64,000 bases of DNA from an uncultured virus (IMG/VR IMGVR_UViG_3300005098_000230). Lineage: Duplodnaviria > Heunggongvirae > Uroviricota > Caudoviricetes. Below the pieces are notes generated by a model. That model was not told where the DNA came from, ran no database searches, and was given only the letters and a program-made list of their open reading frames with translations. Both the position numbers and the translations under genes were made by a program. Position 1 is the first letter of the stretch. The number at the start of each line of letters is the position of its first letter. Shown here piece after piece: positions 4,101 through 50,917 of the stretch. The DNA lies in IMG/VR virus record IMGVR_UViG_3300005098_000230. One strand, 5' to 3'.

Positions 4101-4331
4101 GTTGTGGGCCTTGACCTGTCCCCACCCGCCTGCCTCGATCACCCGCACCCGATGGTTGCGCCTGATGCAGTCCAACCAATGCTCAGTGATGGGGTCAAAG
4201 GGAACATCGGGCGAGTCGTTGATGATGGTGAGGTCCCAGTCCTGGAAGGTCTGCGCCAGAAGCGCGGCGAGACAGCGCCCCAGAACGCGGGGACGGTTCT
4301 TGGTAGGAATGCCAATCTCTACCTGTGCCAC
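1095..4331 (-). CDS. Tri-domain glycosyltransferase (GT2 + GT4 + GT4)
   Basis: N-term IPTKNR..LRLDDD (GT-A DxD); middle FVGRF..EHYGYTVVEA; C-term EGAGLPVLEAMACGVPV (GT-B ExxxxxxxE). Confidence 0.9.
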   Translation of the reverse strand: MAQVEIGIPTKNRPRVLGRCLAALLAQTFQDWDLTIINDSPDVPFDPITEHWLDCIRRNHRVRVIEAGGWGQVKAHNWVLYNSEAPFILRLDDDVLLNAYALQGMMHHFYLSPDIGAVGGLWFPTFAGRSVVEGWEPEWANEGHTIPSWGAQITYPSEGTCFRVQHLYSCCLYRAEAMRAVGGWPEVYSVGVARGEETEGTYKLHLAGYGLLVEPRATGQHLFAAGGIRSDPVWQERYDTDYFLWLARKPQLDALDFERPIRVLVYSNHGEVIGGAERLFLHTVHLLQQVDGLDVYPLFLKPDVAILTPDKCESAFGFRYDDRAGEEWPDRFDVGICASHEGPLPPYPCDHLINYCLFPIATEAVSPFEVVLAISKFTAEHIKARWHREAEVLYPPVPRPQESDVQRPIPCAGSPPVSLPPYMGREKLILFVGRFDPAKAPIVAIHAFRQSGLAEQGWRLLLVGDRTPGHEAYAEFVETVAETLPNVAWTRDLTDVELAEFYQRATILIAPRGIYEQRPDFWEHYGYTVVEAQAHGCIPLACDKGGHRETVPDHFRWSTEEHLIRLLQELCTEQHSSQAQDLLTFRPDPAEYVERLTQIIRQVVYLARDERPLPVRSLHRPLRVLLVSDHPDLPTGWGIAARMVGQGIQASGHAVVQLGSGGVPAHNPYFQTTVPWSVWKGTTQDPDGGACLRELLLVERPDIALIIRDIGGVGGYLQALRAAGFTGPVVGYFPLEGLPLWRGHAHIIAELDGAATWLPFAAREIKRVVGRDVLALPPGADHAPFAPLPPFERERLRGVTGFTGFVVGQVATNRRVKAPWRLLYALALLRKAGQAQGLQCYLHMQAENGGMWEGFDLIDEVARLGIADLVRFAPDLQPETITLLAPLAPMMRANPRQWVAYDRSREVLIPTVATEYIREALPQLQEDVALDLVTQMMQLVSLSMVERYNLLDLLVLPHEVEGAGLPVLEAMACGVPVAVTNDVGRAMSTLAGEAAILMEAKECDKRGTGVDLHLVNPATIAGVIQQVRDDEELRRSLSELGRAHAAKWRWGPTTARLADLVGETWYTWQSKTPPDPAQ

Positions 4332-5623: not shown

Positions 5624-5917
5624 TTAATAGCGAACTGTAAAACCTATGCCTCCGAGTTCTTTTCCCACACGGCTTGCGAGCCGCAAGCCGTTCAGCATCT
5701 CAACATCGCTCATCTCGGCGATAGAACGCTCCGATCCGTCTTCCATGATGAATCTGTCAAGAATGGTCACAACACCGAGAGGGGCGGAGGGAAGGCGACG
5801 CATGTGTCCATGTATCACCCTGGCTGTTTCTGGGTCCACAGCTCCAACACTCGTATTTCCCCACTCCACTACCCTAATCGGCTCAGGGAGTGCGATGTAG
5901 ACCTGGCGCACTTTCAT
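5624..5917 (-). CDS. Hypothetical protein
   Basis: Coupled ORF (ATGA overlap) starting MKVRQV. Confidence 0.55.
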   Translation of the reverse strand: MKVRQVYIALPEPIRVVEWGNTSVGAVDPETARVIHGHMRRLPSAPLGVVTILDRFIMEDGSERSIAEMSDVEMLNGLRLASRVGKELGGIGFTVRY

Positions 5918-6885
5918 CGCAAGACCTCTTTCCATTCTCTCAAGAAATGGGCCAAAGTACAGTTGGCCAACACCCAAGCGCGGGGCATGAACTCCCTACC
6001 ATGCAACACTCGATCTAGCGCCCGCTCAAAAGCGATCTCGTGGTAGTCATCCACCACGATGCCGCATTCAAGGGGCAAGTCAGCGGCGAGACCAGTGCGG
6101 TAGGCCACGATGGGCAGATTGCAGGCCATCGCCTCGATCAGCGCGTAGGAGTTGCCCTCGTAGTGTGAGGGGAAGAAAGCAGCGCATCCCTCTTGCCAGC
6201 GGGCAGCCTCATCGTTCTCGTTGGCAGTGTGTACCCCCAGATATTCCAAGTTCACCGCCGGCCCATCCCATCGCGCCAAGCGATCAGCAACCAGCGGAAT
6301 CATAGCCTTGCCCTTACGGGGATCGTGGGCAACGTGGAGGACTACCTTGTCCTCTGGCGGTTCGAGAGCGGGGGCAAAAACCTCAGTGCCTACACCATTG
6401 AGAATGATCTTCACCTTAGCAGACTCAATACCACACAAGCGAAGCTCGCAAGCTGACTGAGGAGCGACGGCCACCACCAGGTCGGCAGCACGGTACGCTT
6501 CATCCTGCATCTGAGCATGAGGCACAATGTCCTCCGTGCGCATCCAGGGATTGATCTCGTTCTGTATGGCCATGCCCCAGTAGGTGCCGTGACAGACCAC
6601 GATCAGCCGAGCCACCTTCCCTACCACGCCGAGGCCCCAGTAACCGTCAGCTATAACAGTGGTGTCCTGCCCAACCAGTCCCTCATCAAGGAGCCAGTGA
6701 CCGAGAGCCTCCGCTTTTTCCCAATCTGGAGCACTTTCCATGTGGGAATTTTCGGGGTAGTCAGACCACGAGTAAATCGCCAGATCAGGCACGGCGAGGG
6801 CGAGATGGGAAGCAAACTTCTCCACTCCGCCCGTGTACCCATCAGACCGCTTGCGCAGACTTAGATGCACATAATGCTTGCTCAC
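5914..6885 (-). CDS. GT4 family glycosyltransferase
   Basis: GGVEK, ILNGV, PSHYEGNSYALIEAMACNLPIV. Confidence 0.9.
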   Translation of the reverse strand: MSKHYVHLSLRKRSDGYTGGVEKFASHLALAVPDLAIYSWSDYPENSHMESAPDWEKAEALGHWLLDEGLVGQDTTVIADGYWGLGVVGKVARLIVVCHGTYWGMAIQNEINPWMRTEDIVPHAQMQDEAYRAADLVVAVAPQSACELRLCGIESAKVKIILNGVGTEVFAPALEPPEDKVVLHVAHDPRKGKAMIPLVADRLARWDGPAVNLEYLGVHTANENDEAARWQEGCAAFFPSHYEGNSYALIEAMACNLPIVAYRTGLAADLPLECGIVVDDYHEIAFERALDRVLHGREFMPRAWVLANCTLAHFLREWKEVLR

Positions 6886-13637: not shown

Positions 13638-15350
13638 TCACTTCCTAAATATTCGGCGTCTCTCAGGCGGGCGCTTCGGTTCTGGAAGCCCTCGCCCCTG
13701 CGGTGTGATCTTGCTGGTGAAGGCGCGGGGGCCGGCGACGGCCTGGTCTGCGCTGGGTAGCTTGACGGGGCCTTTCCACTTGAGAGCAGCGATGGCGCAG
13801 TAGTTATCAGCGTGCGCCCAGTGGTCAGGACCGACAGAGCGCCACTCTTCATGTGGCTGGTCGTCCCGCGTCTCCTCCGGCGAGAGGTAGACCCAACGCA
13901 TATTTTCCCAGTGTTGAATCCATCCCTCGCCGCCCTGAACATCGTCGATCACCCCATCGGGCGGACCGTAGAGCTGAGTGTACCCTTTCAGGATGTAGTC
14001 GGCGGTCATGTTGAGCGTTTGGGTACGCTCGGCCAGGATGAAATACGGCTCTTTGCCCCTCCAGCGGACAGGCTCGGAGATGTTGCCGTAGTCACAGCAG
14101 AAGACCCTCCCAGGAAACTGCCGGGCGAAATTGCGGGCCTCGTCACGCATGGGCATGGCGTCCACCACGCAGACCTCCACGCCGTAGGTGTGCATGAGCT
14201 GTCCTAGACGCTGCCAGCTTGGAGTCGTCTCCAGGTGGATGATGTCGCGGCGGATGACTTCTACACCGTCAGCGTCTACCATTCCTGTGCGCTGGACGTA
14301 GGCGATCTCAGCGTGCTTGACATTGCCTACATCCACCCCCATTACCGTGCCCACGGCAGCTTCTTGGTGAGGGTAGCCTTTGACAAAGCACTTTTGGAGG
14401 ATCAACTCGCGGCTGATCTGTCCCACGCCCTCCGCTGAGGGGAGACCCAGAGTGAAGTTGAGAAAGTTGCGCTTGAGGCGCGTGTTCTTCTCTTTCCACA
14501 TCAGCGAGCCGCGCAGGTGGTCGGGGCCTACGGGGATGAAGGGGGCAAAGGCTTGGGAAATACGGTAGCCCCTGGTCAAGCGGTCGGGGTACTTGGCCAC
14601 CCAGCGCCCGTTGGAGCGGATGAGCTTCTTCCCGCACTTGGGACAACGGAAACAGCCGGCCTTCCTGTCCAGGTGCTGGTAGTAGTCAATCGGCCCCTCC
14701 CAAGAGCAGCCCGTGCAGGAGACCAACCACTCGTGCTGGTCGGTCTGCTCGAAGAGCTTGGCGATCCCCCAGTTGGGGATCGTGGGCGTGGAGATGTCAC
14801 GGGTGCGCTTGAACTGAGAGGCACCGAGACGCTCGTCGTAGACCTCACGCACGTCGGGCTTCGACTTATCCAGCTCGTCGTGAGTGTTCTGGTCAGAGTC
14901 TATCGTGTAGGCTTCCTTCTCCACCCAGGTGCCGCGAAAGTGGATGATGGACGGGTTGGGACGACCCACACGCCGTACCTCCACCCCGCCCTCCCAGCGC
15001 GTAGCTAGGTACTCTGAGGCGGCGATGATAGGAGCGACGCGGGTAGAGGAGAATTTGTGTGCGTCGTCTGACGTGGGCTGGGTGAAAATGACGGTGACGG
15101 CCGGGTCCCGATGCACCATGCAGAAGCGCAGGGCATCGAGAATGGCCCATGTACTCACGCCAATCTGGGCACCCTTCATCACAACGATGTTCGGGCTATC
15201 ATCTTGGTAAAGAGCAACCAGATAGGGGCGGCGGACAAACTCTAATGGCTGCCCCTTTGGTGTTTTGACCCTGTGGTAAACCACCCAGGCGAGGAGATCA
15301 GACCGAGCGGCGGCAGCGAGTATGTCTTGCTGCTGAGCGTAGTCTGCCAC
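13638..15350 (-). CDS. terL: Terminase large subunit, lambda GpA-like
   Basis: KGAQIGVST, DELDK, ISTPT, CxxC..CxxC, GVDVG, VVDA, DHWAHA. Confidence 0.92.
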   Translation of the reverse strand: MADYAQQQDILAAAARSDLLAWVVYHRVKTPKGQPLEFVRRPYLVALYQDDSPNIVVMKGAQIGVSTWAILDALRFCMVHRDPAVTVIFTQPTSDDAHKFSSTRVAPIIAASEYLATRWEGGVEVRRVGRPNPSIIHFRGTWVEKEAYTIDSDQNTHDELDKSKPDVREVYDERLGASQFKRTRDISTPTIPNWGIAKLFEQTDQHEWLVSCTGCSWEGPIDYYQHLDRKAGCFRCPKCGKKLIRSNGRWVAKYPDRLTRGYRISQAFAPFIPVGPDHLRGSLMWKEKNTRLKRNFLNFTLGLPSAEGVGQISRELILQKCFVKGYPHQEAAVGTVMGVDVGNVKHAEIAYVQRTGMVDADGVEVIRRDIIHLETTPSWQRLGQLMHTYGVEVCVVDAMPMRDEARNFARQFPGRVFCCDYGNISEPVRWRGKEPYFILAERTQTLNMTADYILKGYTQLYGPPDGVIDDVQGGEGWIQHWENMRWVYLSPEETRDDQPHEEWRSVGPDHWAHADNYCAIAALKWKGPVKLPSADQAVAGPRAFTSKITPQGRGLPEPKRPPERRRIFRK

Positions 15351-16307: not shown

Positions 16308-17963
16308 TTAACCCTCTTTCGCCTGCCGCCTCAGCTTACGAGCGGCCTTTACCCGTTTTTGCCACCACGGGTGCTTTGGCTCTAAGTAGAACCAGGGGAT
16401 AAAGTCTTCGTCGAGCGTGTAGAAGCCGCCCCAAGCCCTATCGCGTTGGGGCGACCATTCCTCGTCCAAGTTGGGGTAATAGACCACGCCAAGAAAACCA
16501 CGCTCATCGTAGTCTGCAATGTCCTCGGGAAGAGTATACTCATCAGGGACTCGGAAGGTAGACGGCCAGAAGAAGGGGGGTTCGAGGAGAAAGCCCTCCT
16601 CCCACATAGCGTCCTTGATGTCATACATTGAGGTCGTCTCGCTAATCCCTCTCCTGGGAATGTTCGCCGTCTCTGGAGCCCAAATCTTGTCCAGATCGAC
16701 ACGCTGGACAAGAACGGGCTTATGGTACTTCTCAAAGACCTGAGCCGCTCTGTACCACAATTCCTGATAAGTGCCCTTGTAGTAATTCTGGAAAGCATCA
16801 TCCCCTACTTCTAGGGGGTTGTAGCAACAATTGGGATGATGGAAGAAACGGCGCACACTGAGGACGCGGAGAGCGGTCGGGTGCGTGCCGTAGTCGAGGC
16901 CCACCTCTTCCATTGCCTTGATGAAAGTCGCCGCTGCTTTCTCGTAGTCTTCGAGCGGATAAGATAGGTGCGTGCCCTCATAGAGATCAGGCGTGAACTT
17001 CTCCACCTCAATCCCCAACTCAGGCGATGCCTCAGCCAAAAGTTGGACTCCGTAGCCCTGGCGGGCATGGAGGGGTTCAAAGCTCACGAACTGCGCACCT
17101 GCCTCTTTCACTGTTCGAGCGTAATTGAGCGCCTCTTCGGGTGAGTCTTCCTCCCCGTTGCAAATAAAGGGCGCTCGGCGCACCACAACGTAGACACCTG
17201 CATCTGCCAGCTTGCGAATGTACTCCAAGCGCTGGGTAGCGGAGATGATGGGCGACTCGTACTTCTCCACCACCTCGTCATGTACGGAAGCGAGGCTAAT
17301 CTGCACAACCTTGTGGGGCAGAGCGACGATCTTGTTAAAGTACGCCTCGAAGACGGGACCACCCTTCGTGCTGATCACAACGGGGTACTGGTAGCGTCGA
17401 AGCTGGGTCAAAATGTCCCAAGTAACCTTGCACTGCTTCTCCAGAGCCATAAAGGGGTCGGTTGTTGAGGACATGTGGACGGGAACACGGTGAGCGAAGA
17501 ACTCAGCGATGAAGCGATCCCCTTGCTTCTCCGAGAAGTGAGAGAGAGGTCGAGCGCCCACGCTGGCCTGAAAGTACTTCTCCAGCTTCCCGGCCTCGCC
17601 GACAGCGTAGGCCGAGCGATCCCGGAAGCTCACCTCGCGCCCAATGCGCGATTTTATGAAGTGGTTGATGTAACACATCTTGCAACCATTGGCACAGCCC
17701 CTATAGGGGTTGATGGAAAGGGGTACGGAACATTGCCACAGCCTAGCGAGGTTGATCATACCCCCGTATCCCTTGCGGACGTTGTACGTCCGCAGGTCTT
17801 GTAGTCGCTTCTCCATCTCCTCCGCTCCGGGCGGGGGCGAGGCGCGGGTGATCATGTCCTGGTAGTGCGCTTTCAGCCTCTTGTTCCGCGCTTCGAGTTT
17901 CTTCTTTCGCTCGGCCAGTCTCCTCTTTCGCTCGGTCAGCTTCTCTTTCCTAGTTTTGGCCAT
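16308..17963 (-). CDS. Radical SAM protein, spore-photoproduct-lyase-like (SplB/Rv2578c-type)
   Basis: INPYRGCANGCKMCY (CxxxCxxC), SSTTDPF, ISTK, QRLEYIRKL; very basic termini. Confidence 0.88.
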   Translation of the reverse strand: MAKTRKEKLTERKRRLAERKKKLEARNKRLKAHYQDMITRASPPPGAEEMEKRLQDLRTYNVRKGYGGMINLARLWQCSVPLSINPYRGCANGCKMCYINHFIKSRIGREVSFRDRSAYAVGEAGKLEKYFQASVGARPLSHFSEKQGDRFIAEFFAHRVPVHMSSTTDPFMALEKQCKVTWDILTQLRRYQYPVVISTKGGPVFEAYFNKIVALPHKVVQISLASVHDEVVEKYESPIISATQRLEYIRKLADAGVYVVVRRAPFICNGEEDSPEEALNYARTVKEAGAQFVSFEPLHARQGYGVQLLAEASPELGIEVEKFTPDLYEGTHLSYPLEDYEKAAATFIKAMEEVGLDYGTHPTALRVLSVRRFFHHPNCCYNPLEVGDDAFQNYYKGTYQELWYRAAQVFEKYHKPVLVQRVDLDKIWAPETANIPRRGISETTSMYDIKDAMWEEGFLLEPPFFWPSTFRVPDEYTLPEDIADYDERGFLGVVYYPNLDEEWSPQRDRAWGGFYTLDEDFIPWFYLEPKHPWWQKRVKAARKLRRQAKEG

Positions 17964-17978
17964 TGCTCCCCCTTATGC

Positions 17979-18021
17979 AAAAGAAAAAGCCGTTAGCAGC
18001 GTAAAACGCTTGCTAACGGCT
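17979..18021 (-). terminator. Intrinsic terminator in the late-operon leader
   Basis: AGCCGTTAGCA..TGCTAACGGCT followed by TTTTCTTTT on the minus strand. Confidence 0.75.
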
Positions 18022-18062
18022 GTGAGCTACCCGTAGGCCCCACCGGGCCGTGCGCTAGTGCC

Positions 18063-18092
18063 ATTATACCACATAGTGAGGGTAAATGTCAA
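18063..18092 (-). promoter_or_regulatory. Promoter for the late/packaging operon
   Basis: TTGACA-18 bp-TATAAT with TG extension. Confidence 0.75.
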
Positions 18093-18269
18093 CTCACTTG
18101 TCAGGGGCAATACTAGTGGAACGGGCAGGGAACAAGGCGGTACAAAGCGCAGGTGCGGAGCTGGGGAAAGGTCAAGCGTTCCGAGCCTGTTCCGGCTTCT
18201 AGGCGGGTTGTAACGCCCGTTCCGCCCGTTCCGCCGTTCCGCCTGGGGCGGCTTTCTCGCTTTGCTGGC

Positions 18270-18750
18270 CAGGAGCCAGACGGATGAACGGGCAGACGGC
18301 CAGACGAACGAACGGGCAGAGCCAGACGGACGGACGGACGGACGGGCAGACGGCCAGACGGACGAACGAACGGGCAGAGCCAGACGGACGGACGGACGGA
18401 CGGGCAGACGGCCAGACGGACGGACGAACGGGCAGACGGCCAGACGGACGAACGAACGGGCAGCCGAACGGACATGATCATAAATGCTATCACGAAACGC
18501 CAGACAAAACAGACGGACNNNNNNNNNNNNNNNNNNNNNNNNNNNNNNNNNNNNNNNNNNNNNNNNNNNNNNNNNNNNNNNNNNNNNNNNNNNNNNNNNN
18601 NNNNNNNNNNNNNNNNNNNNNNNNNNNNNNNNNNNNNNNNNNNCAGCCGAACGGACATGATCATAAATGCTATCACGAAACGCCAGACAAAACAGACGGA
18701 CAGCCGAACGGACGGGCAGGGCCAGCCAGACGGACGAACGGAGCCAGCCG
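18270..18750. repeat. Low-complexity GACG/GAAC tandem repeat array spanning an N gap (18519-18643)
   Basis: Repeated GGGCAGACGGCCAGACGGACG/GAACG units; 58 bp identical on both sides of the gap. Confidence 0.9.
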
Positions 18751-18879
18751 AACGCTATATATGAAGGAAACGCGCCTACACTGCGCTATAATAATATGAA
18801 GGATTGCACTTGCAACGGAAACTAACCTTAAAATATCGCAATTGCACACGCTTTAAGATTTCTATACGAAGAAAAACAC

Positions 18880-18907
18880 TTGACACACACGAAAAACACG
18901 CTATAAT
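18880..18907 (+). promoter_or_regulatory. Candidate rightward early promoter
   Basis: TTGACA-16 bp-TATAAT. Confidence 0.6.
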
Positions 18908-19515
18908 GATACATGAAGCACACGAACAAGCCAGACGGCTCACGCAGCCGAACAGGAGCCAGCAAACGGGCAATAGCACGACAACGGAAACCACAACGCG
19001 CTCGATTTGCTGGGGAGCGAAAAAAAGGGATAGACAAGATACTCCGATCTCCAACTCCGATCACTACCACCTAAACTCCGACTACCACCACAACTACCAC
19101 CTTCCAGCCAGAGAGCCGCTTGATTGCCCAGCTCAGAGACCTCACCACCTAAACTCCGACTTCACTCTGGGCCGGCCCTAGAAAGCGGAATAGAACGAAC
19201 CCCAGCCCTTTCCCCCGGAACGAACGAGGGGGCGCTCTAGGAAAGACGGACTTTCCGAACCTGGCACTACCCGAACAAAAAGCGGAATCTGCGAATCTCC
19301 GAGATACCAGCCAGACACCCGAGACTTAAACACCGCCTGAACAAACCGGACCCTGCGAACCGGGCAAGAATGGGCCAGGGAAACAGGGGAAGCTGAGGGA
19401 AGGCAACCAGAACCGGGCAAAGCGGGATTAGCAGGCATAAGGGGGAAAGCCTCAGAAATGAGAAACTATCCTCTCGGAGAGGGCCAGAGGCCAGATATAG
19501 CAGAACGCACAACTA

Positions 19516-19733
19516 GGCAAAGGCGATTATTACACTACACATATAACACTACACACATATATGAAGGATTGCCCTTGCACTTGCAAGAACGGCGCATTTT
19601 CATATATCACCATTGCCAGAATCGCCCACAGCCTGGGCAAAGGCGATTATTACACTACACATATATATGAAGGATTGCCCTTGCACTTGCAAGAACGGCG
19701 CATTTTCATATATCACCATTGCCAGAATCGCCC
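19516..19733 (+). repeat. Tandem direct repeat, about 100-110 bp x2
   Basis: 19516-19627 and 19636-19733 (GGCAAAGGCGATTATTACACTACAC..GCCAGAATCGCCC). Confidence 0.9.
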
Positions 19734-19859
19734 CCCCGCCTAGTGTGTGCTTCCCCGCTTGGCGGGGGATGGATACACTCTCGCCAAGTGGAGCGTGCAT
19801 TCTGCTATGTCTGGCCACTGCTTTGACAAGAGCTGGGGGTGGGCGATCCCGGGAGGTGA

Positions 19860-20336
19860 ATGATGGCGACTTTTGTGTATGGCCAGGTTTACGACCTGGG
19901 CGCAGATTACGATGACGACTATCCGGGTTATCGCTATGCTGTGCCCACCGAGTACGCGGCGGGCAAAGTAGTGAGCGACTGCTGGATCGTGAACGCCGAT
20001 GGTGAGATATGCCCAGGCTATTGCAACCACCCTGTTCTTCTCTGCGTGGACGCCCTTACCCCTGCTCCCGGGGTGACAATACCAATTACACGGCATTTCA
20101 CAGGCTTGGAACTGACCGAGGAGCAACGGTACATCCTCGAACAAAACCGGCACCTCGTCCCCGTCGAGCGTCTCGGTGATGGGGACTGGCTGGTGCTGGA
20201 CAATGTACCACCTCAGAGTGACGTGTTCCCTGACGGGCACTTCGGACCGTATATCCTCACCATCGATGGTAAGCTCCACGATGTGAACTACCACTACAGC
20301 GAATGCCACGGTATCTACGTACCGTGGAAGATATAG
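19860..20336 (+). CDS. Hypothetical protein
   Basis: GGAGGT RBS, 158-aa ORF. Confidence 0.7.
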   Translation: MMATFVYGQVYDLGADYDDDYPGYRYAVPTEYAAGKVVSDCWIVNADGEICPGYCNHPVLLCVDALTPAPGVTIPITRHFTGLELTEEQRYILEQNRHLVPVERLGDGDWLVLDNVPPQSDVFPDGHFGPYILTIDGKLHDVNYHYSECHGIYVPWKI

Positions 20337-20499
20337 CTAACCTTTACTTACACAATTTACTTACACGATTATGGGTTGATCGCCCTTCCCCAGCTCTTGT
20401 CAAGGTGGAACTATCCGCTTAGCCGCACTTGGCGGGGGATGGGGGCGGGCGATTTGCTCTGACATCCCGGAAGGAGAGTGAAAAAAGGAGAGAGAGAAA

Positions 20500-20718
20500 A
20501 TGGGATACTTTTCTGATCTTCACATCCGAATGGTTGAAAGCGGCGTCAAGCCCGAGCGGTTAACCCTGCCGCGCTGCCCGATCTGCGGATCGGAGCAGAT
20601 AGAGCTGGACATCAGCGCCGGCGGCACGATGGTGCAGGTGTTTTGCTCTGATCGGACTTGTCCGGGGTTTGACAACCCGCACTGGATCACCATCCCCCGT
20701 AGCAACAAAAGGAGGTAG
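20500..20718 (+). CDS. Zn-ribbon protein
   Basis: CPIC...CSDRTC. Confidence 0.7.
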   Translation: MGYFSDLHIRMVESGVKPERLTLPRCPICGSEQIELDISAGGTMVQVFCSDRTCPGFDNPHWITIPRSNKRR

Positions 20719-20720
20719 CG

Positions 20721-20969
20721 ATGTTTGCAGTATTACTAGACAGTGTGGTTTACACCGCAGTCGCAGAGATCGAAGGACGCTGGATTGATGGCAACAGCGG
20801 GTACGATGTAACGGGCGGTAAGCTCCTCGGCACATTCTACAAGGCCATTTACGCCAACGGTCGCAGGTTTGAATACTACCGTCAAGGACGGGATGTTTAC
20901 CAACTCTGCCCCGATGGCAGGCTGATGTGGTTTTGCGCCTGGGAAGTCGTAGACACACTGCTGCCATGA
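20721..20969 (+). CDS. Hypothetical protein
   Basis: AGGAGGT RBS. Confidence 0.7.
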   Translation: MFAVLLDSVVYTAVAEIEGRWIDGNSGYDVTGGKLLGTFYKAIYANGRRFEYYRQGRDVYQLCPDGRLMWFCAWEVVDTLLP

Positions 20970-21132
20970 TTCATATCCCCCCCACCTGGGGCGGGAAGGG
21001 CCGGACAGTAACAACGTCACGAGCGCCCGCCCCAGGTTTGCCAAATCGCCCCTCCCCATCCCCTGCCAAGTGCAAAGGACGCACGCTTGTCCGTTCCTCC
21101 TAGCCCCCAGCGGGGATGAAAGGAGGACGGAA

Positions 21133-21657
21133 ATGTCTAAGAAGCGAGTATGCAACCTGTACGATGAGATTCTTGCAAGGGTCGCCGAGGTTGAGGGCGA
21201 GCCTGACAGCCGCTTTCGGCACTGGGTCAAGCGAGTGGACAGCGTTGACCAAAACAAGACCAGCGGTTACGCCTTCGCGGGCGAGTTCATCAACGAGGGC
21301 ACGGTCGAGGTTGAAATCAAGCCGTCTGTTTACCTGGTCAAGACGGTACGCGGGTCTCGCAAGTACCAGACCGCCACGTACAATGTGGTGGTCATGGATC
21401 AGGATGGCAACCTCACCTTGACTGACATCCGCACTACTGACACTGAGCGGGGCTGGGCCTTGCGCATCCGCGACAAAGTGGCTGAGATGGTAAACCAGCA
21501 GGCCAACGCACCACAAACGGTGACAGTGGAACTGACTGGCCCGGCGCTAGAGTTCCTCACGACACTACGGGCGCGGATCGGCGGGAACATCAGTGACGCC
21601 GAGATCATCGGTGCGGCGTTAAGCCTGTACGAGATGCACACCTCAGACCGCGCTTAG
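21133..21657 (+). CDS. Hypothetical protein, possible C-terminal RHH
   Basis: AGGAGG RBS; C-term VTVEL..SDAEIIGAAL. Confidence 0.7.
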   Translation: MSKKRVCNLYDEILARVAEVEGEPDSRFRHWVKRVDSVDQNKTSGYAFAGEFINEGTVEVEIKPSVYLVKTVRGSRKYQTATYNVVVMDQDGNLTLTDIRTTDTERGWALRIRDKVAEMVNQQANAPQTVTVELTGPALEFLTTLRARIGGNISDAEIIGAALSLYEMHTSDRA

Positions 21658-21680
21658 CTCGCCACGAACGAGGTGCAGTC

Positions 21681-21932
21681 ATGGCCAAGAAGAAACCCCT
21701 TATCCCCATCGCCACCCGCAACCCGCGACGGCCATACACCATCCGCAAGATCAGCACAACGGTAAAATACAGCCGCGAGCTCCCCACTGGCGATTGGAAG
21801 AGCGTCGAGCTCTTCGCCAGCGCCACGGTTGGGGAGCACGAGGACCCGCAGGTGGCTCACCTCCTCTTATACGAGGAGCTGGCAGACACCTTGCGGAGAG
21901 TGTTCTTTCAACCGCCAAATGGACAAGAGTAG
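21681..21932 (+). CDS. Hypothetical protein
   Basis: GAGGT RBS. Confidence 0.65.
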   Translation: MAKKKPLIPIATRNPRRPYTIRKISTTVKYSRELPTGDWKSVELFASATVGEHEDPQVAHLLLYEELADTLRRVFFQPPNGQE

Positions 21933-22018
21933 CCCCGCCGCTGGGGGCTGAGAGGAGCGGACAAGTACAGCGTCTGGTATGGCCTCTGCGAGCTGGGCTG
22001 GAGAGAGGAGGAGGAAAC

Positions 22019-22237
22019 ATGCCACGGGGAATTAAGATTACCTCGCTGCATGGCCTAAAATCCGCTGGTCAGTACGACTACGCTCACAACATTGCCGAAT
22101 GCACACACTACTACTTCCGCTTTGTGGAATATGTAGATGGCAACCCTGGACGAGAATGGAGCGGTGTTGTCAAGAATGAGCAACTGTGGAATCTCCTACT
22201 GGAAGCCGGTTGCATCGCAGAGGAGGGCGAACGATGA
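22019..22237 (+). CDS. Hypothetical protein
   Basis: GGAGGAGG RBS. Confidence 0.65.
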   Translation: MPRGIKITSLHGLKSAGQYDYAHNIAECTHYYFRFVEYVDGNPGREWSGVVKNEQLWNLLLEAGCIAEEGER

Positions 22238-22665
22238 AAACCACTAAGTCGATGATGAAGATCATCACCAAGATCACGGAGAAGCATGGCGTGAAGCTGG
22301 ATCGCATCGGCGACCATATCCGCCTCGAAATGGACTGCTACGAGCCGCTGGTAATCGAGGTGGTGGGCCCGAACCAAGTAAGCGTCGCTCACTATTGCTA
22401 CAACGACTTTGGCGACGCGATGGCCGATCCCGACCTCGTTTTCTACACTGGCTTTGGGGAAGACGGCTGGGTACCAGTGGAAGCCACACTGCTCATGGGT
22501 TACACCCGTGCTGGCAGGGTATCCCCGAGAGGGGAGCTCACCCACATCAACTCCCATGCAGTGACCGATCTGGTGCGCCTCGCCAATATGTGGGCGCGGA
22601 ACATCAAGCACCAGGGCTGGCTGGAGAACGGGCGACCGCCCAGCGAGACGGAGATGGTGAAATGA
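22234..22665 (+). CDS. DUF6908-like protein
   Basis: YEPLVIE..VSVAHY..GDAMADPDLVF..WVP. Confidence 0.6.
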   Translation: MKTTKSMMKIITKITEKHGVKLDRIGDHIRLEMDCYEPLVIEVVGPNQVSVAHYCYNDFGDAMADPDLVFYTGFGEDGWVPVEATLLMGYTRAGRVSPRGELTHINSHAVTDLVRLANMWARNIKHQGWLENGRPPSETEMVK

Positions 22666-22928
22666 GCACATGCCCACGAGGAGGAGGACACCACAAGGTG
22701 CCCGAGGTCGGCGACCTCGTCTACTTCATTGAGGGCATTGACTTTGATTGGTACAAGCTCGCTGTCCCCGATGAGGTGGATGAGGTGAAAATGACGCGGC
22801 GTGGGCCGATGGTACACTTGTCAGACCTTGACCGATGGTACGCACCCAATCAGATTGTCGCCCACGGCCCGGAGGAAGGCGCATCTTTCCATGACGCGCC
22901 TTCCTACGGAGAGCTGCTTTGGGATTGA
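22662..22928 (+). CDS. Hypothetical protein
   Basis: ORF overlapping the previous stop. Confidence 0.55.
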   Translation: MSTCPRGGGHHKVPEVGDLVYFIEGIDFDWYKLAVPDEVDEVKMTRRGPMVHLSDLDRWYAPNQIVAHGPEEGASFHDAPSYGELLWD

Positions 22929-23017
22929 GCAAACTTCAGCCCAGCCCAGCTCGGAGGGGCCATACACGGCCAAAGCAAAGCGGAAAACCGCAAATATCAC
23001 ACAGAAGGAGGAAAACG

Positions 23018-24418
23018 ATGGACACCCTCAATGTATCCCAAATCTTCCCCAATCCCGATCAGCCCCGGCAGACGTTCGATCCCGACAGCCTGCGGGAGCT
23101 GGCCGAGGACATCGCCGCCCACGGCCTCATTGAGCCGTTGGTGGTTGTCAACCGCAAGCTGGACTCTGCCTACTACATCCGCCGCCTCCCAGCAGAGGTA
23201 CGGGAGTTGGTGGACGAACAGCACGCCACACACATGATCGTGGCCGGCGAGAGGCGGTGGAGGGCCTGTCACATAGCTGGCCTGACCGAGGTACCAGTGC
23301 GGGAGCTGAACCTCCACGACTCAGAGGTCTTCGAGATCGCCCTGGCAGAAAACATCACCAGGGCAGACATGAAGCCTACCGAGGAAGGGCGGGCGCTCAA
23401 TCGGTTGCGGGATAAGTACGGCTTGACCATCGCCGAAATCGCCCGCAGGTACGGCAAGAGCGAGGGCTGGGTCCGCGACCGGATCAAGCTCCTCAGCCTC
23501 GATCCCGAAATCGCCATCCTAGTGGACAGCGGGCAGGTGCCGATCAGCGTCGGCGTGGCCATCTCCAAGCTGACTCCCGACCGCCAGCATCGCGTCATCA
23601 AGCTGATGAACGAAGAGGGTCTGAATGCGATGGAAGCCTGCTTCCTCGCAGATCAGCTCTTCAACGAACAAGAACAGGGCACTCTCTTCGACCTGAGCGC
23701 GTACATGGCAGAGAGGGCAGCGGAAGCAGCGGCCAAGTGGCTGGAGAAAGGAAAGCAGACTACGGAGAAAATCCGTGACGCTCTAGTCACTGCCGTTCAG
23801 CAGTTGCCGCTGGAGGAACTGGAGGCACACATCGAGACCTGCCGCGAACTCTTGGAAGCGCGGACGCTGGTACTGGCCGGAGCCGATGAGCCTGGGCCGG
23901 GGCAGTTCGAGGTTTGTCCGCGCTGTCGGCACTATGCTGATGGCGTGTGTCTCCTGCTCCTGGAGCAGGACAACGACCCCGTTGGACTGGACGGCGAGGA
24001 GTGCTTTGAAGAGCAGCTCCCCACCCTTGAGGAATTGGAGCAAGAGATAGCCAACGACGCCAAGCTCATCCTGGCACATCCTGCTCCGGTCCACGAGATC
24101 ACGCCGAGAGTCAGCATCAAGGTCTGTCGCTTCGACACTGACCATAAGGCCCTGGCTGCTGGGGGGATCACTGGCGAGGCCGATCATCACTTAGTGGTAG
24201 CCGTGCTGATAGATGGACAAGTTGCCTTCACCCTCACTGGCGTGGAGAATGTGGACGCGGGCCGCGTGGACTTCGGCCTCGACTTCGATTATCTAGACAA
24301 CGCCACCGCCAACTTCGGGTTCGACATCAAGATGGCCGGCACAGTGTTCTCTGGCGCAGACTGGCCGCAGGTGCTGGCTCAAAGCGGGAAGGGGGAACGG
24401 CTCTATCGGGAGGACTAG
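23018..24418 (+). CDS. parB: ParB/Spo0J-family CTPase with long C-terminal extension
   Basis: PNPDQPRQTF, IVAGERRWRA, ALAENITRADM, HTH; Cys-containing C-terminal region. Confidence 0.9.
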   Translation: MDTLNVSQIFPNPDQPRQTFDPDSLRELAEDIAAHGLIEPLVVVNRKLDSAYYIRRLPAEVRELVDEQHATHMIVAGERRWRACHIAGLTEVPVRELNLHDSEVFEIALAENITRADMKPTEEGRALNRLRDKYGLTIAEIARRYGKSEGWVRDRIKLLSLDPEIAILVDSGQVPISVGVAISKLTPDRQHRVIKLMNEEGLNAMEACFLADQLFNEQEQGTLFDLSAYMAERAAEAAAKWLEKGKQTTEKIRDALVTAVQQLPLEELEAHIETCRELLEARTLVLAGADEPGPGQFEVCPRCRHYADGVCLLLLEQDNDPVGLDGEECFEEQLPTLEELEQEIANDAKLILAHPAPVHEITPRVSIKVCRFDTDHKALAAGGITGEADHHLVVAVLIDGQVAFTLTGVENVDAGRVDFGLDFDYLDNATANFGFDIKMAGTVFSGADWPQVLAQSGKGERLYRED

Positions 24419-24490
24419 CCATCCTCAACAAAGGTGGGGGACTGATGGGCAGTCCCCCACCTATCACTACCTCACTACGGAGGCAAACAC

Positions 24491-25021
24491 ATGTCTGCCA
24501 AAGACTTCATTGAGGGGGATACCATCATCCAGTTGGGCAAGATTCACCTTGCCCCAACCTGGGAATGGTGCGCCATGCCCTATCCAGGACATCCCCACGG
24601 GTGCCCCAACATCGGCAAGGGCTACCCTGACTGCCCTCCGCTGGCCCCACGGGTTGACGAGGTGATTGACCTGGATCGTGGTGTGTGGTGGATCGGTTCA
24701 GTTTTTGACCTAGCCGGGCACCGCCGCCAGATGATGGAAAAACACCCCAACTGGAGCGAGCGCAAGGCTGGCTGTGTGTACTACTGGCAACCAACCGTGC
24801 GAGCACACAACAGGCGCTTGCTGCGCCAATTCCTAGCTGAGCACCCTGATATGGTAGCTTTCAGCCCAGAGGGGTTGGGGGTTAACGTCACCCTCACCCT
24901 GCGGGAGGTGGGCGTTCACCTGAGATGGAAGTATCCCCTGGAGCGCGTCATTAAGGGCTGGATGGTGGGCTACCCACGACTTGGGTGCGAAAACCATCCC
25001 GCTCTAAGAACGCTCCCCTAG
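24491..25021 (+). CDS. DUF2284-like metal-binding protein
   Basis: C..GCPNIGK..CPP..PEGLGVNV. Confidence 0.6.
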   Translation: MSAKDFIEGDTIIQLGKIHLAPTWEWCAMPYPGHPHGCPNIGKGYPDCPPLAPRVDEVIDLDRGVWWIGSVFDLAGHRRQMMEKHPNWSERKAGCVYYWQPTVRAHNRRLLRQFLAEHPDMVAFSPEGLGVNVTLTLREVGVHLRWKYPLERVIKGWMVGYPRLGCENHPALRTLP

Positions 25022-26206: not shown

Positions 26207-26248
26207 AGTAATGGGGGCGGCTTTCCATGTGGAAAGCCGCCCCCAGCC

Positions 26249-27196: not shown

Positions 27197-27707
27197 AGCT
27201 CTAGCTGAGAAGTTTCGACCCCTCGCAGAGGCCACTGCTCCCCGCGAGGCAGTGGCCCTCTGCGGGCTATGCCATGACCGCCACTGGATAGTGAGAACCC
27301 TGGAGAACTGCGCCAAGAGCACCCGCGCCTTCGACACGCGACCTGGCGAGTTCGAACTCGCGGTGCGCGAGCTGGCCGGCCTGGGAGTGACTAGGTTGGT
27401 ATTAGCTCACTCGCACACTAAGGCGCAGTCGAGGGGGGGCATCACCCCCTCAAATCGCGGGGACGGGAGGGGTGACGTGAACCTGCTGGGAGACCCGCAG
27501 TTCATCCAGCAGGTGAACGCGCTCCTCAAAGCCGCTGGTATCGAGCCCCCGCTTCTGCATCTTATTTACTCCGTGAGCACACGGGAGTGGGGACTGTACG
27601 AGATAAACCAGCAGCTCGGCGAGATCATCACCCGCCGGAGGAGAGGCCGTAAGGTTTACCTCCGACGCGGGTATCGGACAATTGAGAAGGGGCGACTTTC
27701 CGCATAA
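27186..27707 (+). CDS. JAB/MPN-like metalloprotease, probable CTG start
   Basis: PREAVAL, LAHSH..PS..D; AAGGAGGTGAT RBS 5 nt before an in-frame CTG. Confidence 0.55.
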   Translation: MNAEALAEKFRPLAEATAPREAVALCGLCHDRHWIVRTLENCAKSTRAFDTRPGEFELAVRELAGLGVTRLVLAHSHTKAQSRGGITPSNRGDGRGDVNLLGDPQFIQQVNALLKAAGIEPPLLHLIYSVSTREWGLYEINQQLGEIITRRRRGRKVYLRRGYRTIEKGRLSA

Positions 27708-27762
27708 GTTTCCATGTGGAAAGTCGCCCCTGTCAAGACGAAATAGGAAGGGAGAAAGAGCT

Positions 27763-28371: not shown

Positions 28372-28789
28372 CGCCTCCCCGTTGAGAAATTTGAATTTGA
28401 AACACCCCCTCCCCTGCACGCAAAACATTATACACAAATGTTGCAAAGATTGCAAACCCCCTGTCTCGACACCTCTGCTCCACATTCTGAGGTGTGAGAC
28501 CGGGGCCGAGATGAAGAAGAGTAGTCTGACCCACGAGCCAGACCATCACTCTGGAGCCGTCAATTCCAACACAGACTTGCATCGTGTTTCCTCAATAGTT
28601 TCCTCAATAAGAGAAAGTGGTGGGGGCGACTCGGCCTCGCCCCCACCCCCAGCAGGAAGGAAAGAAGGAGGAAAGCGGCCTGGTCGGGAGGAGCGCAAAC
28701 GTACTTGGTCTAGTATTTCGCCCACATTAAGCAGTCTTTGGAGTTGGAGTGAGTCGTCCATGCTCCCCCCAGTAACTTTGTGCCACTCT

Positions 28790-28869
28790 TAGTGACATTA
28801 TACCACACTTGCCTTGCACTTGTCAAGCAAGGGTGGACAAGCAATTGGAACTATGGTATAATGTCACTA
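28790..28869. promoter_or_regulatory. Divergent promoter pair forming a 16-bp perfect inverted repeat
   Basis: TAGTGACATTATACCA / TGGTATAATGTCACTA; TTGACA-18-TATAAT (-) and TGGACA-17-TATAAT (+). Confidence 0.7.
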
Positions 28870-28898
28870 GGGAGCAAGGCGCAACGAATGGGGGCAGT

Positions 28899-29141: not shown

Positions 29142-29205
29142 AATGCCGTCAACACCAGTCCATCACTGTGGATTGGTGTTTCTTCTTGGGGATCAGGAGT
29201 TGGTC

Positions 29206-30825
29206 ATGTGGGGAATCTACCTTCGGGTGAGTGATGAAGACGCGCAGAGGCCGGAGCTATCTATTCCCGCGCAACGGCAGGCGATCATGGAAACCCTCAT
29301 TAAGCCCTCTGGTGAGGGGGTATGGGGGGAATATACCGATCTGATCACTGGTCGTTCAGTGAGCAAGCGGCAACAGTTTCAGCAGATGTTGGTTGACGCG
29401 AAGGCCGGCCTGTTCAACAAGCTGGCCATTCACAAATGGGACCGCTTCGGTCGCAATTTGCTGGAAGCTCTCCAAACAGAAGAGGTGCTGACTGAGGCGG
29501 GGGTGCAGGTGATCGCCGCAGACATGGCTGGTCTGGACACCACCACTGCTGCCGGCTGGATGAGCAAAATATCGCTGCAAATGGTAGCTGAATTCCTCTC
29601 CCGTAACTTGGGGGAGGAAGCCCTCAAGGGAATGCGGGAGAAATTCCGGCGTGGCGGCTGGCCCTGGAGGGCCCCAGATGGATACATCAATAAGCGCGAG
29701 GGTGAACGAGGTGGTCGCGCGTGGGTGGAACTAGACCCAGAGAGAGCGCCGCTCATCGCCACCATCTTTCGACGGTGGGCTACAGGGCGGTATGACTCAC
29801 TGCGAGAGCTGGCTGAGGAACTCAACTCAGAGGGATACCGCCGACCTGATGGGGGGCTTTGGGACAAACAGACGTTGGCCCGACGCCTCCGTAATCCCTT
29901 TTACAAGGGGACTATCCGCTCCAGGCAGTGGGCAATGACCAATCAAGGCACCCACGAGCCGTTGGTGGACGAGGAGACCTGGTCATGTTGCCAATTGATT
30001 CTCGACCAGCACGGCGCAGGCAGGACTCGCCAGCGAAAACACACATATATCTTGGGGGGGATACTCTGGTGGGGGGACGACGAAACGGGCTGCCGTTTCC
30101 GGGGCACGACCAATCGGGGCAATCGGGGTAAGGGTAAGTGGATCCGCTACTACCGCACCCACCGACAGATAGGGGAACGGCGTCTCTACTTGCGGTGCGA
30201 GATGGTGGACTCGCAGATACCCACATTGCTCCGTTTGCTCGAAGTGCCTCCAGATGTGGAAGCAGCGTTGAGGCAAACCTATGCCGAAACGCTGGAGAGA
30301 GAAGCCCAGAGGGAGGGTCCCACTGAGAGATGGGAGCGGCAGGTACGCAAGTTGGAGCAGGAACGGCGCAACCTGCTCAGGCTGGCCCTGAAAGGCGCAG
30401 TCCCCGACGACTTATATGTTGAAGAAATGAACAGGCTCGAGGCGGCGCTAACCCACGCCCAGGCGCAACTGGAGGTTAGCCGGCGAGCGGTGTACCACGC
30501 AATGAACGCCCTGGATAAGGCGCTACTGTTACTGAGACAGGCAGCGGATTTGTGGGAGGTTGCTACAAACGAGGAGCGGAAGAAGCTGGTCGGGCTGATT
30601 TTCCAGAGGATACGGGTGGACAATGAGGGGACAATCATCGAGGCCGTACTGCACCAGCCCTTCGGCTGGATACAAAAAACTACCGCTGATGGCGGTAGTT
30701 CGATTAAGGATAAGTTAAGTACCCCTAATGCGACCTTAATCGAACTTTCCTCTACCTCCCTCCTGCTCCCGCAGGAGCATGAAAGTATACATCTCCTCGA
30801 CGATCTTGCGCCCCTCGTCCGATAG
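29206..30825 (+). CDS. Large serine recombinase (integrase)
   Basis: YLRVS catalytic Ser, DRFGRN, PDGY, LRNPFYKG, HEPLVD, coiled coil. Confidence 0.95.
   Translation: MWGIYLRVSDEDAQRPELSIPAQRQAIMETLIKPSGEGVWGEYTDLITGRSVSKRQQFQQMLVDAKAGLFNKLAIHKWDRFGRNLLEALQTEEVLTEAGVQVIAADMAGLDTTTAAGWMSKISLQMVAEFLSRNLGEEALKGMREKFRRGGWPWRAPDGYINKREGERGGRAWVELDPERAPLIATIFRRWATGRYDSLRELAEELNSEGYRRPDGGLWDKQTLARRLRNPFYKGTIRSRQWAMTNQGTHEPLVDEETWSCCQLILDQHGAGRTRQRKHTYILGGILWWGDDETGCRFRGTTNRGNRGKGKWIRYYRTHRQIGERRLYLRCEMVDSQIPTLLRLLEVPPDVEAALRQTYAETLEREAQREGPTERWERQVRKLEQERRNLLRLALKGAVPDDLYVEEMNRLEAALTHAQAQLEVSRRAVYHAMNALDKALLLLRQAADLWEVATNEERKKLVGLIFQRIRVDNEGTIIEAVLHQPFGWIQKTTADGGSSIKDKLSTPNATLIELSSTSLLLPQEHESIHLLDDLAPLVR
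30697..30746. other. Candidate attP in the 3' end of the integrase gene
   Basis: 50-bp site with perfect 13-bp arms AGTTCGATTAAGG / CCTTAATCGAACT. Confidence 0.65.
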
Positions 30826-31194: not shown

Positions 31195-31238
31195 AAAACC
31201 TCCTTTCGCCCTTTCGCTTGCAATATTTATCAAGTACC

Positions 31239-31304
31239 ATTATAGCCTATCCCGTTTCAGTTGTCAAGTTAAGGCTTGACAACCGCAATGCGATATGATA
31301 TAAT
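31239..31304. promoter_or_regulatory. Back-to-back consensus promoters (genetic switch)
   Basis: TTGACA-17-TATAAT on both strands (31239-31267 minus; 31276-31304 plus). Confidence 0.85.
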
Positions 31305-31349
31305 TGTCTTGCAGGTGAAACATAACCGCGTACACGAAGAGGCAACAAT

Positions 31350-32171
31350 ATGGCAGAAGAGCGCACCTTTTGGCCCAACTCGACACAGTATCCCAACCTT
31401 CTGACCGACCAACTGATGTACCTGCTCACTTCCGATGAGTGGAAAGTAGTGAGCTACGTTTGTCGGCGCACCTTTGGCTTCCAGAAGTGGAAGGACCCAA
31501 TCAGTTACGACCAGCTCATGCACGGCCTGCGTAGCCGTGCAACTGGCAAAATGCTGGACGGGGGTACGGGACTGACAGAATATGCTCTCAAAAAAGCCCT
31601 GCGTGGGTTGTGCAAGCGTGGGGCTAACCTGCTCCTGAGAGAGAAACGGGAAGGTCAAGAAAGCATCTTCTCCCTCAATCTCGACATCAACACGGTTAGG
31701 GTTGATTGGCTGCTAGAGCGCCGCAGGCGCAAGGAGGAACAAGACCGCCAGCGCACGAGCAAGGCCCGTCAAGCTCGTGGCGAGGACAACCCCGGTTGTC
31801 CCACAACCGGGGTTGTCCCACAACCGGACACCCCGGTTGTCCCACAACCGGACACCCCGGTTGTCCCACAACCGACACAAAATAAAGGAAACAAAGGAAA
31901 TAATGGAGATATAGATAGTATCTGGACTTGTTTCCTTACTGAGGTCGAAAGGCAAATGACCAAAGCAACTTTTCACAGTTGGGTTGCTCCTTGCTCCCTC
32001 ATTGCCATCACTGAGGACAATGGCACGGGTGTGAACATCCGCATCCGTTGCAAAACCGTATACGCTCAGGAATGGCTTACCAACCGTCTGCGCCCCATTT
32101 TCCTCCGCACCTTCGAGGGGCTGTTGGGCAAGCCGGTAACCACCATCAGTTTCGAGACGGAGAAAGCATGA
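31350..32171 (+). CDS. Replication initiator (lambda O-like N-term, DnaA_N C-term)
   Basis: RRTFGFQK..ISYDQL..GTGL; C-term W..MTKATFHSWV..YAQEWLTNRL. Confidence 0.85.
   Translation: MAEERTFWPNSTQYPNLLTDQLMYLLTSDEWKVVSYVCRRTFGFQKWKDPISYDQLMHGLRSRATGKMLDGGTGLTEYALKKALRGLCKRGANLLLREKREGQESIFSLNLDINTVRVDWLLERRRRKEEQDRQRTSKARQARGEDNPGCPTTGVVPQPDTPVVPQPDTPVVPQPTQNKGNKGNNGDIDSIWTCFLTEVERQMTKATFHSWVAPCSLIAITEDNGTGVNIRIRCKTVYAQEWLTNRLRPIFLRTFEGLLGKPVTTISFETEKA
31785..31878 (+). repeat. Iterons / probable origin inside the rep gene
   Basis: Four copies of near-palindromic GGTTGTCCCACAACC. Confidence 0.8.
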
Positions 32172-49991: not shown

Positions 49992-50000
49992 CGTTCATCC

Positions 50001-50768: not shown

Positions 50769-50917
50769 TCACTCCTTTTCCAAACCTTCTCCACCTGGGC
50801 CCCTGGGGGGAGAGGCCCAGGCGAGGTAGGTGGAGCCGGCCCGACTCGAACGGGCTTCCTGGAGGGGTTGACCGAGTTTGGCATTGCCTCCAGTCGAACA
50901 CCAGTCGCGGCCCCACA

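Follow-up and report, generated by a model that had tools for sequence, protein, structure and literature searches.

The DNA described here is a stretch of 64,000 nucleotides (nt), called the window below, which is part of a 73,355-bp contig of an uncultured temperate tailed phage (IMG/VR record IMGVR_UViG_3300005098_000230). Genes run leftward from ~18,000 and rightward from ~19,860. At the start of the rightward genes lies an array of five imperfect inverted-repeat pairs, placed end to end, which we will term stems 0 to 4. Four of these pairs had been described in an initial annotation as long-range RNA stems, each enclosing one to three complete genes and separated from the next by only 11–21 nt. 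A repeat search of 19000-24000 recovered the four at the same coordinates and with the same scores (24/26, 29/32, 25/28, and 23/25), and the loops of stems 1–4 hold 1, 2, 2, and 3 open reading frames (ORFs). Position by position, the arms also reproduce the ten reported non-Watson-Crick positions, which are six sense-strand G·U pairs together with U·U, C·C, C·A, and G·G mismatches. The search added a fifth pair, stem 0, in which 23 of 26 positions (88%) are complementary and the rest are A·A, U·G, and C·A. The arms are listed below with the predicted energy of each sense-strand duplex.

19485..19510, + strand: stem 0 5' arm, 23/26 with 19795-19820, sense duplex -40.1 kcal/mol
19795..19820, + strand: stem 0 3' arm, pairs with 19485-19510
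19823..19848, + strand: stem 1 5' arm, 24/26 with 20378-20403, sense duplex -48.9 kcal/mol
20378..20403, + strand: stem 1 3' arm, pairs with 19823-19848
20425..20456, + strand: stem 2 5' arm, 29/32 with 21042-21073, sense duplex -64.4 kcal/mol
21042..21073, + strand: stem 2 3' arm, pairs with 20425-20456
21086..21113, + strand: stem 3 5' arm, 25/28 with 21938-21965, sense duplex -56.4 kcal/mol
21938..21965, + strand: stem 3 3' arm, pairs with 21086-21113
21977..22001, + strand: stem 4 5' arm, 23/25 with 22941-22965, sense duplex -51.7 kcal/mol
22941..22965, + strand: stem 4 3' arm, pairs with 21977-22001

The duplexes are 25–32 base pairs (bp) long. Their complementarity is 88–92% when only Watson-Crick pairs are counted and 92–97% (24/26 to 31/32) when G·U pairs are included, with longest perfect runs of 10–16 bp. 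Loops 0 to 4 measure 284, 529, 585, 824, and 939 nt, and the spacers between successive stems are 2, 21, 12, and 11 nt. In each gene-enclosing stem the non-canonical positions are clustered 8–13 bp from the inner end. Stem 1 can be extended outward to 19818 by two G-C and three G·U pairs, in the sense strand only.

Each of the ten arms lies in intergenic sequence. In stems 1–4, the end of the 5' arm lies 14, 43, 19, and 17 nt from the first start codon, and the last stop codon lies 41, 72, 5, and 12 nt from the 3' arm. A GGAGG-type ribosome-binding site precedes every cassette ORF, and these sites are located outside the helices. The loops contain the following features.

19542..19733, + strand: loop 0, direct repeat of 106 nt in two copies (98% alike), both containing a 6+6 palindrome and a weak promoter-like motif
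19863..20336, + strand: cassette 1, one ORF of 157 amino acids (aa), orphan, no family
20500-20718, + strand: cassette 2 ORF 1, 72 aa, zinc-ribbon-like, sub-threshold Lar match
20721-20969, + strand: cassette 2 ORF 2, 82 aa, orphan
21133-21657, + strand: cassette 3 ORF 1, 174 aa, orphan
21681-21932, + strand: cassette 3 ORF 2, 83 aa, orphan
22019-22237, + strand: cassette 4 ORF 1, 72 aa, overlaps the next ORF
22234-22665, + strand: cassette 4 ORF 2, 143 aa, DUF6908 (PF21849, E 4.4e-18)
22662-22928, + strand: cassette 4 ORF 3, 88 aa, overlaps the preceding ORF

DUF6908 is the sole Pfam match above threshold among the cassette proteins, the matches to Lar and DUF7507 being below their cut-offs. 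An Atlas search with the cassette proteins gave no match at or above 0.8 and no TM at or above 0.5. No convincing ORF is present in the 284 nt of loop 0. Stem 0 shows that the device extends beyond genes; it encloses repeated operator- or promoter-like units. The 6+6 palindrome occurs in three copies (18803-18816, 19572-19585, and 19678-19691), two of them within loop 0. Its arms are CTTGCA/TGCAAG in the 106-nt repeats and vary in the first copy, and each copy is followed by a conserved motif consisting of TTGCAA, 16 nt, and a TATATC-like sequence. These elements are candidates for the operator or promoter of a switch region.

The array is likely transcribed from a perfect promoter upstream of stem 0, which would be the start of a rightward transcript carrying all five helices. 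A second perfect promoter is divergent from it.

18880..18907, + strand: sigma-70 promoter, 12/12 consensus (TTGACA, 16 nt, TATAAT)
18092-18063, - strand: sigma-70 promoter, 12/12 consensus with extended TG, heading the radical-SAM/terminase/structural operon

A scan of 19,800-23,000 found no terminator-like site on the + strand, and the one + strand promoter-like site within the array is weak (9/12) and lies inside a gene. With no internal terminator and only a weak promoter, one transcript through the array is the simplest reading. Both arms of stem 0 would be present only in transcripts from the 18880 promoter, and it may be speculated that this stem marks the origin of the transcript.

Frequency of long-range inverted repeats

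The whole window was tested for inverted pairs lying 51–4000 nt apart with at least 22 matches in 25. Exactly five pairs pass, and all of them are stems of the array. In first-order Markov simulations of the window, any such pair arose in 0 of 20 and in 2 of 300 simulations, with a maximum of one per simulation. The helices exist in the sequence far above chance expectation, and they are found exactly in the intergenic gaps. Among the 25 longest of 43 pairs in a general repeat search, the others that lie more than 50 nt apart are 71–83% complementary, save for one 20-nt pair of 90%. This exception (62607-62626/62925-62944, 298 nt apart) is located near the major capsid gene on the - strand, and chance is a plausible origin for it.

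The arms are unique in the window. A 14-mer scan allowing up to two mismatches returned background matches outside the array plus one real copy at 19755-19772. The same scan rules out dispersed palindromes of the repetitive extragenic palindrome or bacterial interspersed mosaic element type, as the arms are not scattered. Motifs shared by stems 0, 3, and 4 with other hairpins (6–9-mers, and one 13/14 match at 27221) are within chance expectation. An 18/18 match between 26211-26228 and 27716-27733, considered as a further clamp, is actually formed by two related local hairpins. A looser scan for chains of pairs (17/18 with G·U allowed) was too noisy: it gave ~20 matches for each simulated window, and AT-rich loci produced many chains by chance. 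No Rfam family was found at gathering score in the window, nor at E values up to 1 in 17900-24600.

Paralogous helices and strand preference

Stems 1 and 2 are paralogous. Their 5' arms are identical at 19 of 25 positions (alignment score 26) and their 3' arms at 20 of 25 (score 30), whereas the scores of 2000 shuffled versions of the arms had a 99th percentile of 17 and never exceeded 22. When the 25 aligned pairs are compared, 18 are unchanged, four are double changes that are still Watson-Crick pairs (A-U to G-C three times and C-G to A-U once), and none is broken. The remainder comprises one A-U to G·U change, one conserved G·U, and an adjacent mismatch with both of its letters replaced (U·U to C·C). 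As judged from this alignment, complementarity has been maintained through change between the paralogous helices. Repeats that keep their complementarity in this way are not the decaying remains of a single inverted duplication. The non-canonical cluster of stems 1 and 2 has been kept while its letters changed, which suggests a functional internal loop.

Two local hairpins resemble these stems.

19755..19791, + strand: mini-hairpin, 14 bp with a 9-nt loop, gene-free, paralog of the outer part of stem 2
20984..21037, + strand: local hairpin in loop 2, 12-bp perfect, just before the stem 2 3' arm

Over 14 aligned pairs, the mini-hairpin and stem 2 share nine unchanged pairs and differ by one compensatory change and four one-sided changes between Watson-Crick and G·U, again with none broken. 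The likeness of the 20984-21037 hairpin is weaker, and it is only tentatively taken as a fourth paralog. When it is counted, the 52 cells over 13 positions consist of 45 Watson-Crick pairs, six G·U pairs, one mismatch, and no A·C. In all five one-sided differences between paralogs, one of the two forms is a sense-strand G·U pair, which would be a mismatch in DNA. Because stems 1 and 2 are paralogous, the 3' arm of the former and the 5' arm of the latter can also pair locally (20370-20465, -53.7 kcal/mol); when the whole array is folded, the long-range helices prevail. With 22 occurrences in the window, the motif GGGCGAT exceeds the expected 10.3 (none of 100 shuffles reaches 22). Six copies lie within 19621-21051, where the inner ends of stems 1 and 2 and the ends of the two 106-nt repeats carry them, and this clustering could reflect common descent or a recognition motif in common.

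The minimum-energy fold of 19440-23020 on the + strand (-1495.7 kcal/mol) contains all five helices, with 21/26, 25/26, 31/32, 27/28, and 24/25 pairs for stems 0 to 4. The same fold of the - strand (-1457.5 kcal/mol) has 24/26, 24/26, 29/32, 25/28, and 23/25 pairs. As isolated duplexes, the antisense arms give -40.8, -47.5, -60.6, -52.5, and -45.2 kcal/mol, so that the sense duplex is the stabler one for stems 1–4 and the two are level for stem 0. Positions that are G·U in the sense strand outnumber A·C positions by 7:2 in the five stems (one-sided binomial 0.09) and by 10:2 when the mini-hairpin is added (0.019), in a test that is post hoc and overlaps the paralog counts. The wobble positions had initially been read as favouring structure in the sense strand. 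This view gains from the wobble excess, the pairing kept between paralogs, and the location of the arms in intergenic gaps, and loses from the similar folding of both strands. The evidence for a sense-strand RNA is suggestive, not decisive.

Possible RNase III processing and alternative readings

The reading preferred here, which we regard as evenly balanced between right and wrong, is that the helices of the sense messenger RNA (mRNA) may be substrates of RNase III in the style of ribosomal RNA (rRNA) operons, cutting the operon into end-paired units. The rightward polycistronic RNA would form five successive long-range helices, each joining the sequence before a unit to the sequence after it. 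The RNA would thereby be folded into five closed domains, one of them a non-coding regulatory or leader domain and the other four gene cassettes. As the leader-trailer helices of rRNA operons do, the helices would act as substrates of the double-strand-specific RNase III of the host. Cutting of both helix strands would give five units with their ends still paired by the inner 8–13 bp, as in pre-16S and pre-23S rRNA. The paired 5' and 3' ends would shield the unit mRNAs from exonucleases, and the short linkers between units would be left to decay. Helix formation in vivo, cutting by RNase III, and a resulting stabilised or balanced expression of the first genes of the operon are what we infer from the array.

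Duplexes of 25–32 bp are a generic substrate of bacterial RNase III. In Bacillus subtilis, the enzyme cuts intramolecular mRNA duplexes of 10–36 bp whose sides are up to 505 nt apart (bioRxiv 10.1101/2023.03.12.532304). The initial annotation had added to a similar proposal that the units might be circularised, that the message is an early one, and that the cassettes might be swappable gene-loop modules. Circularisation finds no support, and early expression is presumed from position only. For swappable modules there is only a hint, namely that the same type of helix occurs both empty (with a 9-nt loop) and gene-filled.

A number of points weigh against processing by RNase III. Both strands fold the helices about equally well, and the wobble bias is modest and could be mimicked if C-to-T mutations accumulate preferentially on the non-template strand. 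The sequence immediately outside the stems offers as many extensions by G·U as by A·C, four of each. The covariation comes from paralogs inside one genome, and complementarity would also be needed by a function at the DNA level. The loops of 824–939 nt exceed the 505-nt maximum of B. subtilis. No RNase III or RNA ligase was found by Pfam among 67 ORFs of the window. The loop of stem 0 is gene-free, so that the label "gene cassette" is incomplete. Finally, cleavage is something that we infer wholly from sequence features.

If the helices are used as proposed, phages would have extended the solution of the rRNA operon to protein-coding genes. Each of the orphan first genes would obtain its own end-protected message from a single promoter, which would be an extra layer of phage expression control recognisable from sequence alone. 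Such use would explain the pairwise-complementary intergenic sequence at the start of some phage operons, and it would provide a natural model for synthetic operons in which genes are to be insulated and stabilised.

The helices may also form in the mRNA and stay uncut, acting as structure only. Uncut helices could protect the ends of the message from 5'- and 3'-dependent decay and keep the spacers double-stranded, beyond the reach of Rho or single-strand endonucleases. They could also keep adjacent cassettes from disturbing each other's folding, or place the last stop codon close to the first ribosome-binding site so that ribosomes can re-initiate there. The sequence evidence is the same as for processed helices, and the short distances (5–72 nt from stop codon to arm and 14–43 nt from arm to start codon) are in line with these roles. 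On the other hand, near-perfect duplexes of 25–32 bp are what RNase III generically cuts, and their escape would need a special feature. We regard this reading as unlikely. Pairing between the 5' and 3' untranslated regions controls the icaR mRNA of Staphylococcus aureus (PMC3868564), and RNase III reportedly features in this case too, so that the two readings are not mutually exclusive.

Another view places the function in the DNA, where the repeats would be substrates of recombination or inversion, hairpins or cruciforms of single-stranded DNA, or scars of gene insertion into hairpins, with the RNA helices as a by-product. Complementarity and compensatory change fit a constraint on DNA equally well, and a large serine recombinase and an annealing protein that is Rad52-like are among the phage's own products. 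However, the five pairs differ in sequence and offer no common core to a site-specific recombinase, only stems 1 and 2 being alike, and this argues against an invertible segment or shufflon. Perfect runs of 10–16 bp are poor substrates for homologous recombination, and inversion of a cassette would silence it. The arms are not dispersed, no target-site duplications flank them, and Pfam found no transposase family in the loops, which rules out a transposon or miniature inverted-repeat transposable element. The one-sided differences between paralogs, all G·U in the sense RNA and mismatched in DNA, also speak against this view. Two contigs of other sequencing runs (X2, 21882-22032, and X1, 21966-22209) are colinear with the window across the junction of stems 3 and 4, a weak point because contigs drop rare forms. 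Among the sequencing runs matching 19400-23100 no RNA run was listed, and three DNA runs gave nine short contigs, none of which shows a joint, and the parts that they leave uncovered are uninformative. Overall, a present or past role of the repeats in DNA is rather improbable.

A historical role in DNA would fit the empty and filled copies of the same helix, which are expected if genes enter hairpin loops. In this connection the helix, and not the gene, could be the unit, with new early genes acquired inside the loops of existing processing hairpins, although we consider this doubtful. Of the filled paralogous helices, one has a 529-nt loop with a single gene and the other a 585-nt loop with two, and the empty ones are 19755-19791 and perhaps 20984-21037. 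If this is true, a newcomer gene would arrive together with the signals that excise and stabilise its mRNA. The array would then be a cassette platform at the RNA level, functionally comparable to an integron and working via transcript processing. The empty and filled paralogs make the acquisition of early genes by phages a directly testable question.

Chance or an assembly artefact, for which one could cite the metagenome-type contig and its internal N run (18520-18643), is hardly credible, given five pairs against a single pair in 2 of 300 simulations, arms that respect gene boundaries, pairs that are imperfect and all different, unlike fold-back artefacts, and the X2 contig, which reproduces the stem 3 3' arm and the stem 4 5' arm without difference, in a run that is perhaps not independent of the source sample.

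Phage context, relatives, and known systems

A gpA-type large terminase is encoded in the window at 13638-15350 on the - strand, and a Mu-type portal protein and an E-type major capsid protein are also present. Further products include a replication O-like protein, an actin-like segregation protein, two ParB-like proteins, and an FtsK-like ATPase. The large serine integrase/recombinase lies at 29143-30825 and the Rad52-like annealing protein at 39805-40548 (Pfam E 1.6e-5, 25.3 bits against a cut-off of 20.3). The operon continues past the array with the following gene.

23018..24418, + strand: ParB-like gene, first gene past the array, with no long-range stem around it and a local hairpin (24433-24462) after it

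Local GC-rich hairpins without a U-run are located at later gene boundaries of the same operon, at 24433-24462, 26213-26245, 27219-27268, and 27690-27733. Those at 26213 and 27690 are paralogs of each other, and the former is followed by a promoter (TTGACT, 17 nt, TATAAT). Between the divergent promoters, ~1.4 kb of non-coding DNA (18100-19484) is depleted in T on the + strand, with 9.8% in 18100-18519 and 11.6% in 18914-19484 against 21% in the window. Tandem repeats of period 58/28/4 lie within it at 18279-18463, and the N run at 18520-18643 has the same ~55-nt sequence on both sides. An origin, a packaging site, and a long structured leader are all conceivable roles for this T-poor stretch.

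Farther from the array, a candidate operator is found upstream of two ORFs, the last of which encodes the serine integrase. It is a 21-nt inverted repeat (28788-28872, 90%, 38-nt spacer), and each of its arms contains a TATAAT-like sequence. Just upstream of the gene for the O-like protein, a 33-nt imperfect palindrome (31236-31307) contains a TTGACA...TATAAT-like promoter. Inside that gene, at 31792-31851, a 22-nt palindromic unit has a near-exact repeat 38 nt downstream. These two sites are candidate origin elements. Glycosyltransferases are numerous for a phage, with at least seven GT2/GT4 ORFs at 1095-4331, 5914-6885, and 47583-52183 (- strand). One of these ORFs is 1078 aa long and has both GT2 and GT4, and a phosphodiesterase, a methyltransferase, and a radical-SAM protein are found as well.

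The window has no DNA match among GenBank phages, its terminase is at most 27% identical to those of GenBank phages and plasmids, and three of the eight cassette proteins gave no match when compared with GenBank phages. Single-sequence searches of viral contigs with the ParB-like protein and with the first ORF of cassette 3 also gave no match. A ParB alignment found nothing in JGI metagenomes and viral contigs, and in genome contigs only generic ParB genes of Clostridia and others. A terminase alignment search (JGI, IMG/VR, and GTDB) yielded 36 loci of at most 44% identity. In these loci (~436 kb, some duplicated), none of the eight cassette proteins has a homolog, and no pair of at least 22/25 occurs, save for a perfect pair right at the terminus of contig L114. 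Closer relatives are known from Logan/ENA records, with terminases 67–71% and ParB-like proteins 44–47% identical.

The DUF6908 family has 531 representatives, and eight viral loci that encode it contain no long-range pair of at least 18/20, which indicates that the stems do not travel with this gene family. A 203-nt contig from a marine-sediment run (X1) matches cassette 2 ORF 2 (20822-20965) with 22 differences in 144 nt and diverges right past the gene. A related variant of this ORF therefore exists, on a piece too short to reach the arms.

Among the closest known systems are bacterial rrn operons, in which leader-trailer helices flank 16S and 23S rRNA and are substrates of RNase III. The phage array shares with them the long-range helix from flank to flank around a whole functional RNA, the occurrence of several helices in a row on one transcript, and duplexes of about two helical turns or more with few non-canonical pairs. 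In contrast to rRNA operons, the phage loops hold protein-coding cassettes and one non-coding stretch, and five follow in a row with spacers of 2–21 nt.

In phage T7, host RNase III cleaves the early polycistronic message at intergenic sites and leaves a duplex that stabilises the resulting RNAs. The T7 sites are local hairpins between cistrons, whereas the strands of each helix in the present array lie on either side of genes. T7-like local hairpins are limited in the array to the mini-hairpin 19755-19791 and the alternative pairing of the stem 1 3' arm with the stem 2 5' arm. Integron attC sites are local hairpins with conserved core boxes that need the IntI tyrosine recombinase, and shufflon repeats have one common core. 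What both have in common with the array is that small gene units follow one another, each between imperfect inverted repeats. Integron cassettes are ruled out, as the complementarity runs across the cassettes and attC-like local sites are absent; Pfam found no tyrosine recombinase among the 67 ORFs scanned.

The RNase III duplexes of B. subtilis are cut with a 2-nt stagger and have sides hundreds of nt apart, and the phage helices fall within their range of lengths. Those sites are isolated, with sides at most 505 nt apart, and not reported as a chain bracketing genes, whereas the phage loops span 284–939 nt. In S. aureus icaR, both ends of a single mRNA likewise pair, with involvement of RNase III (PMC3868564). 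This case reportedly concerns one chromosomal gene, whose ribosome-binding site is masked by a short interaction, whereas the ribosome-binding sites of the phage array lie outside the helices. A literature search, with most subscription journals outside its reach, found no description of a chain of abutting gene-enclosing helices in a phage operon. The elements are known singly, as the stalks of rRNA, the local RNase III hairpins of T7, the long-range duplexes of B. subtilis, and the 5'-3' pairing of icaR.

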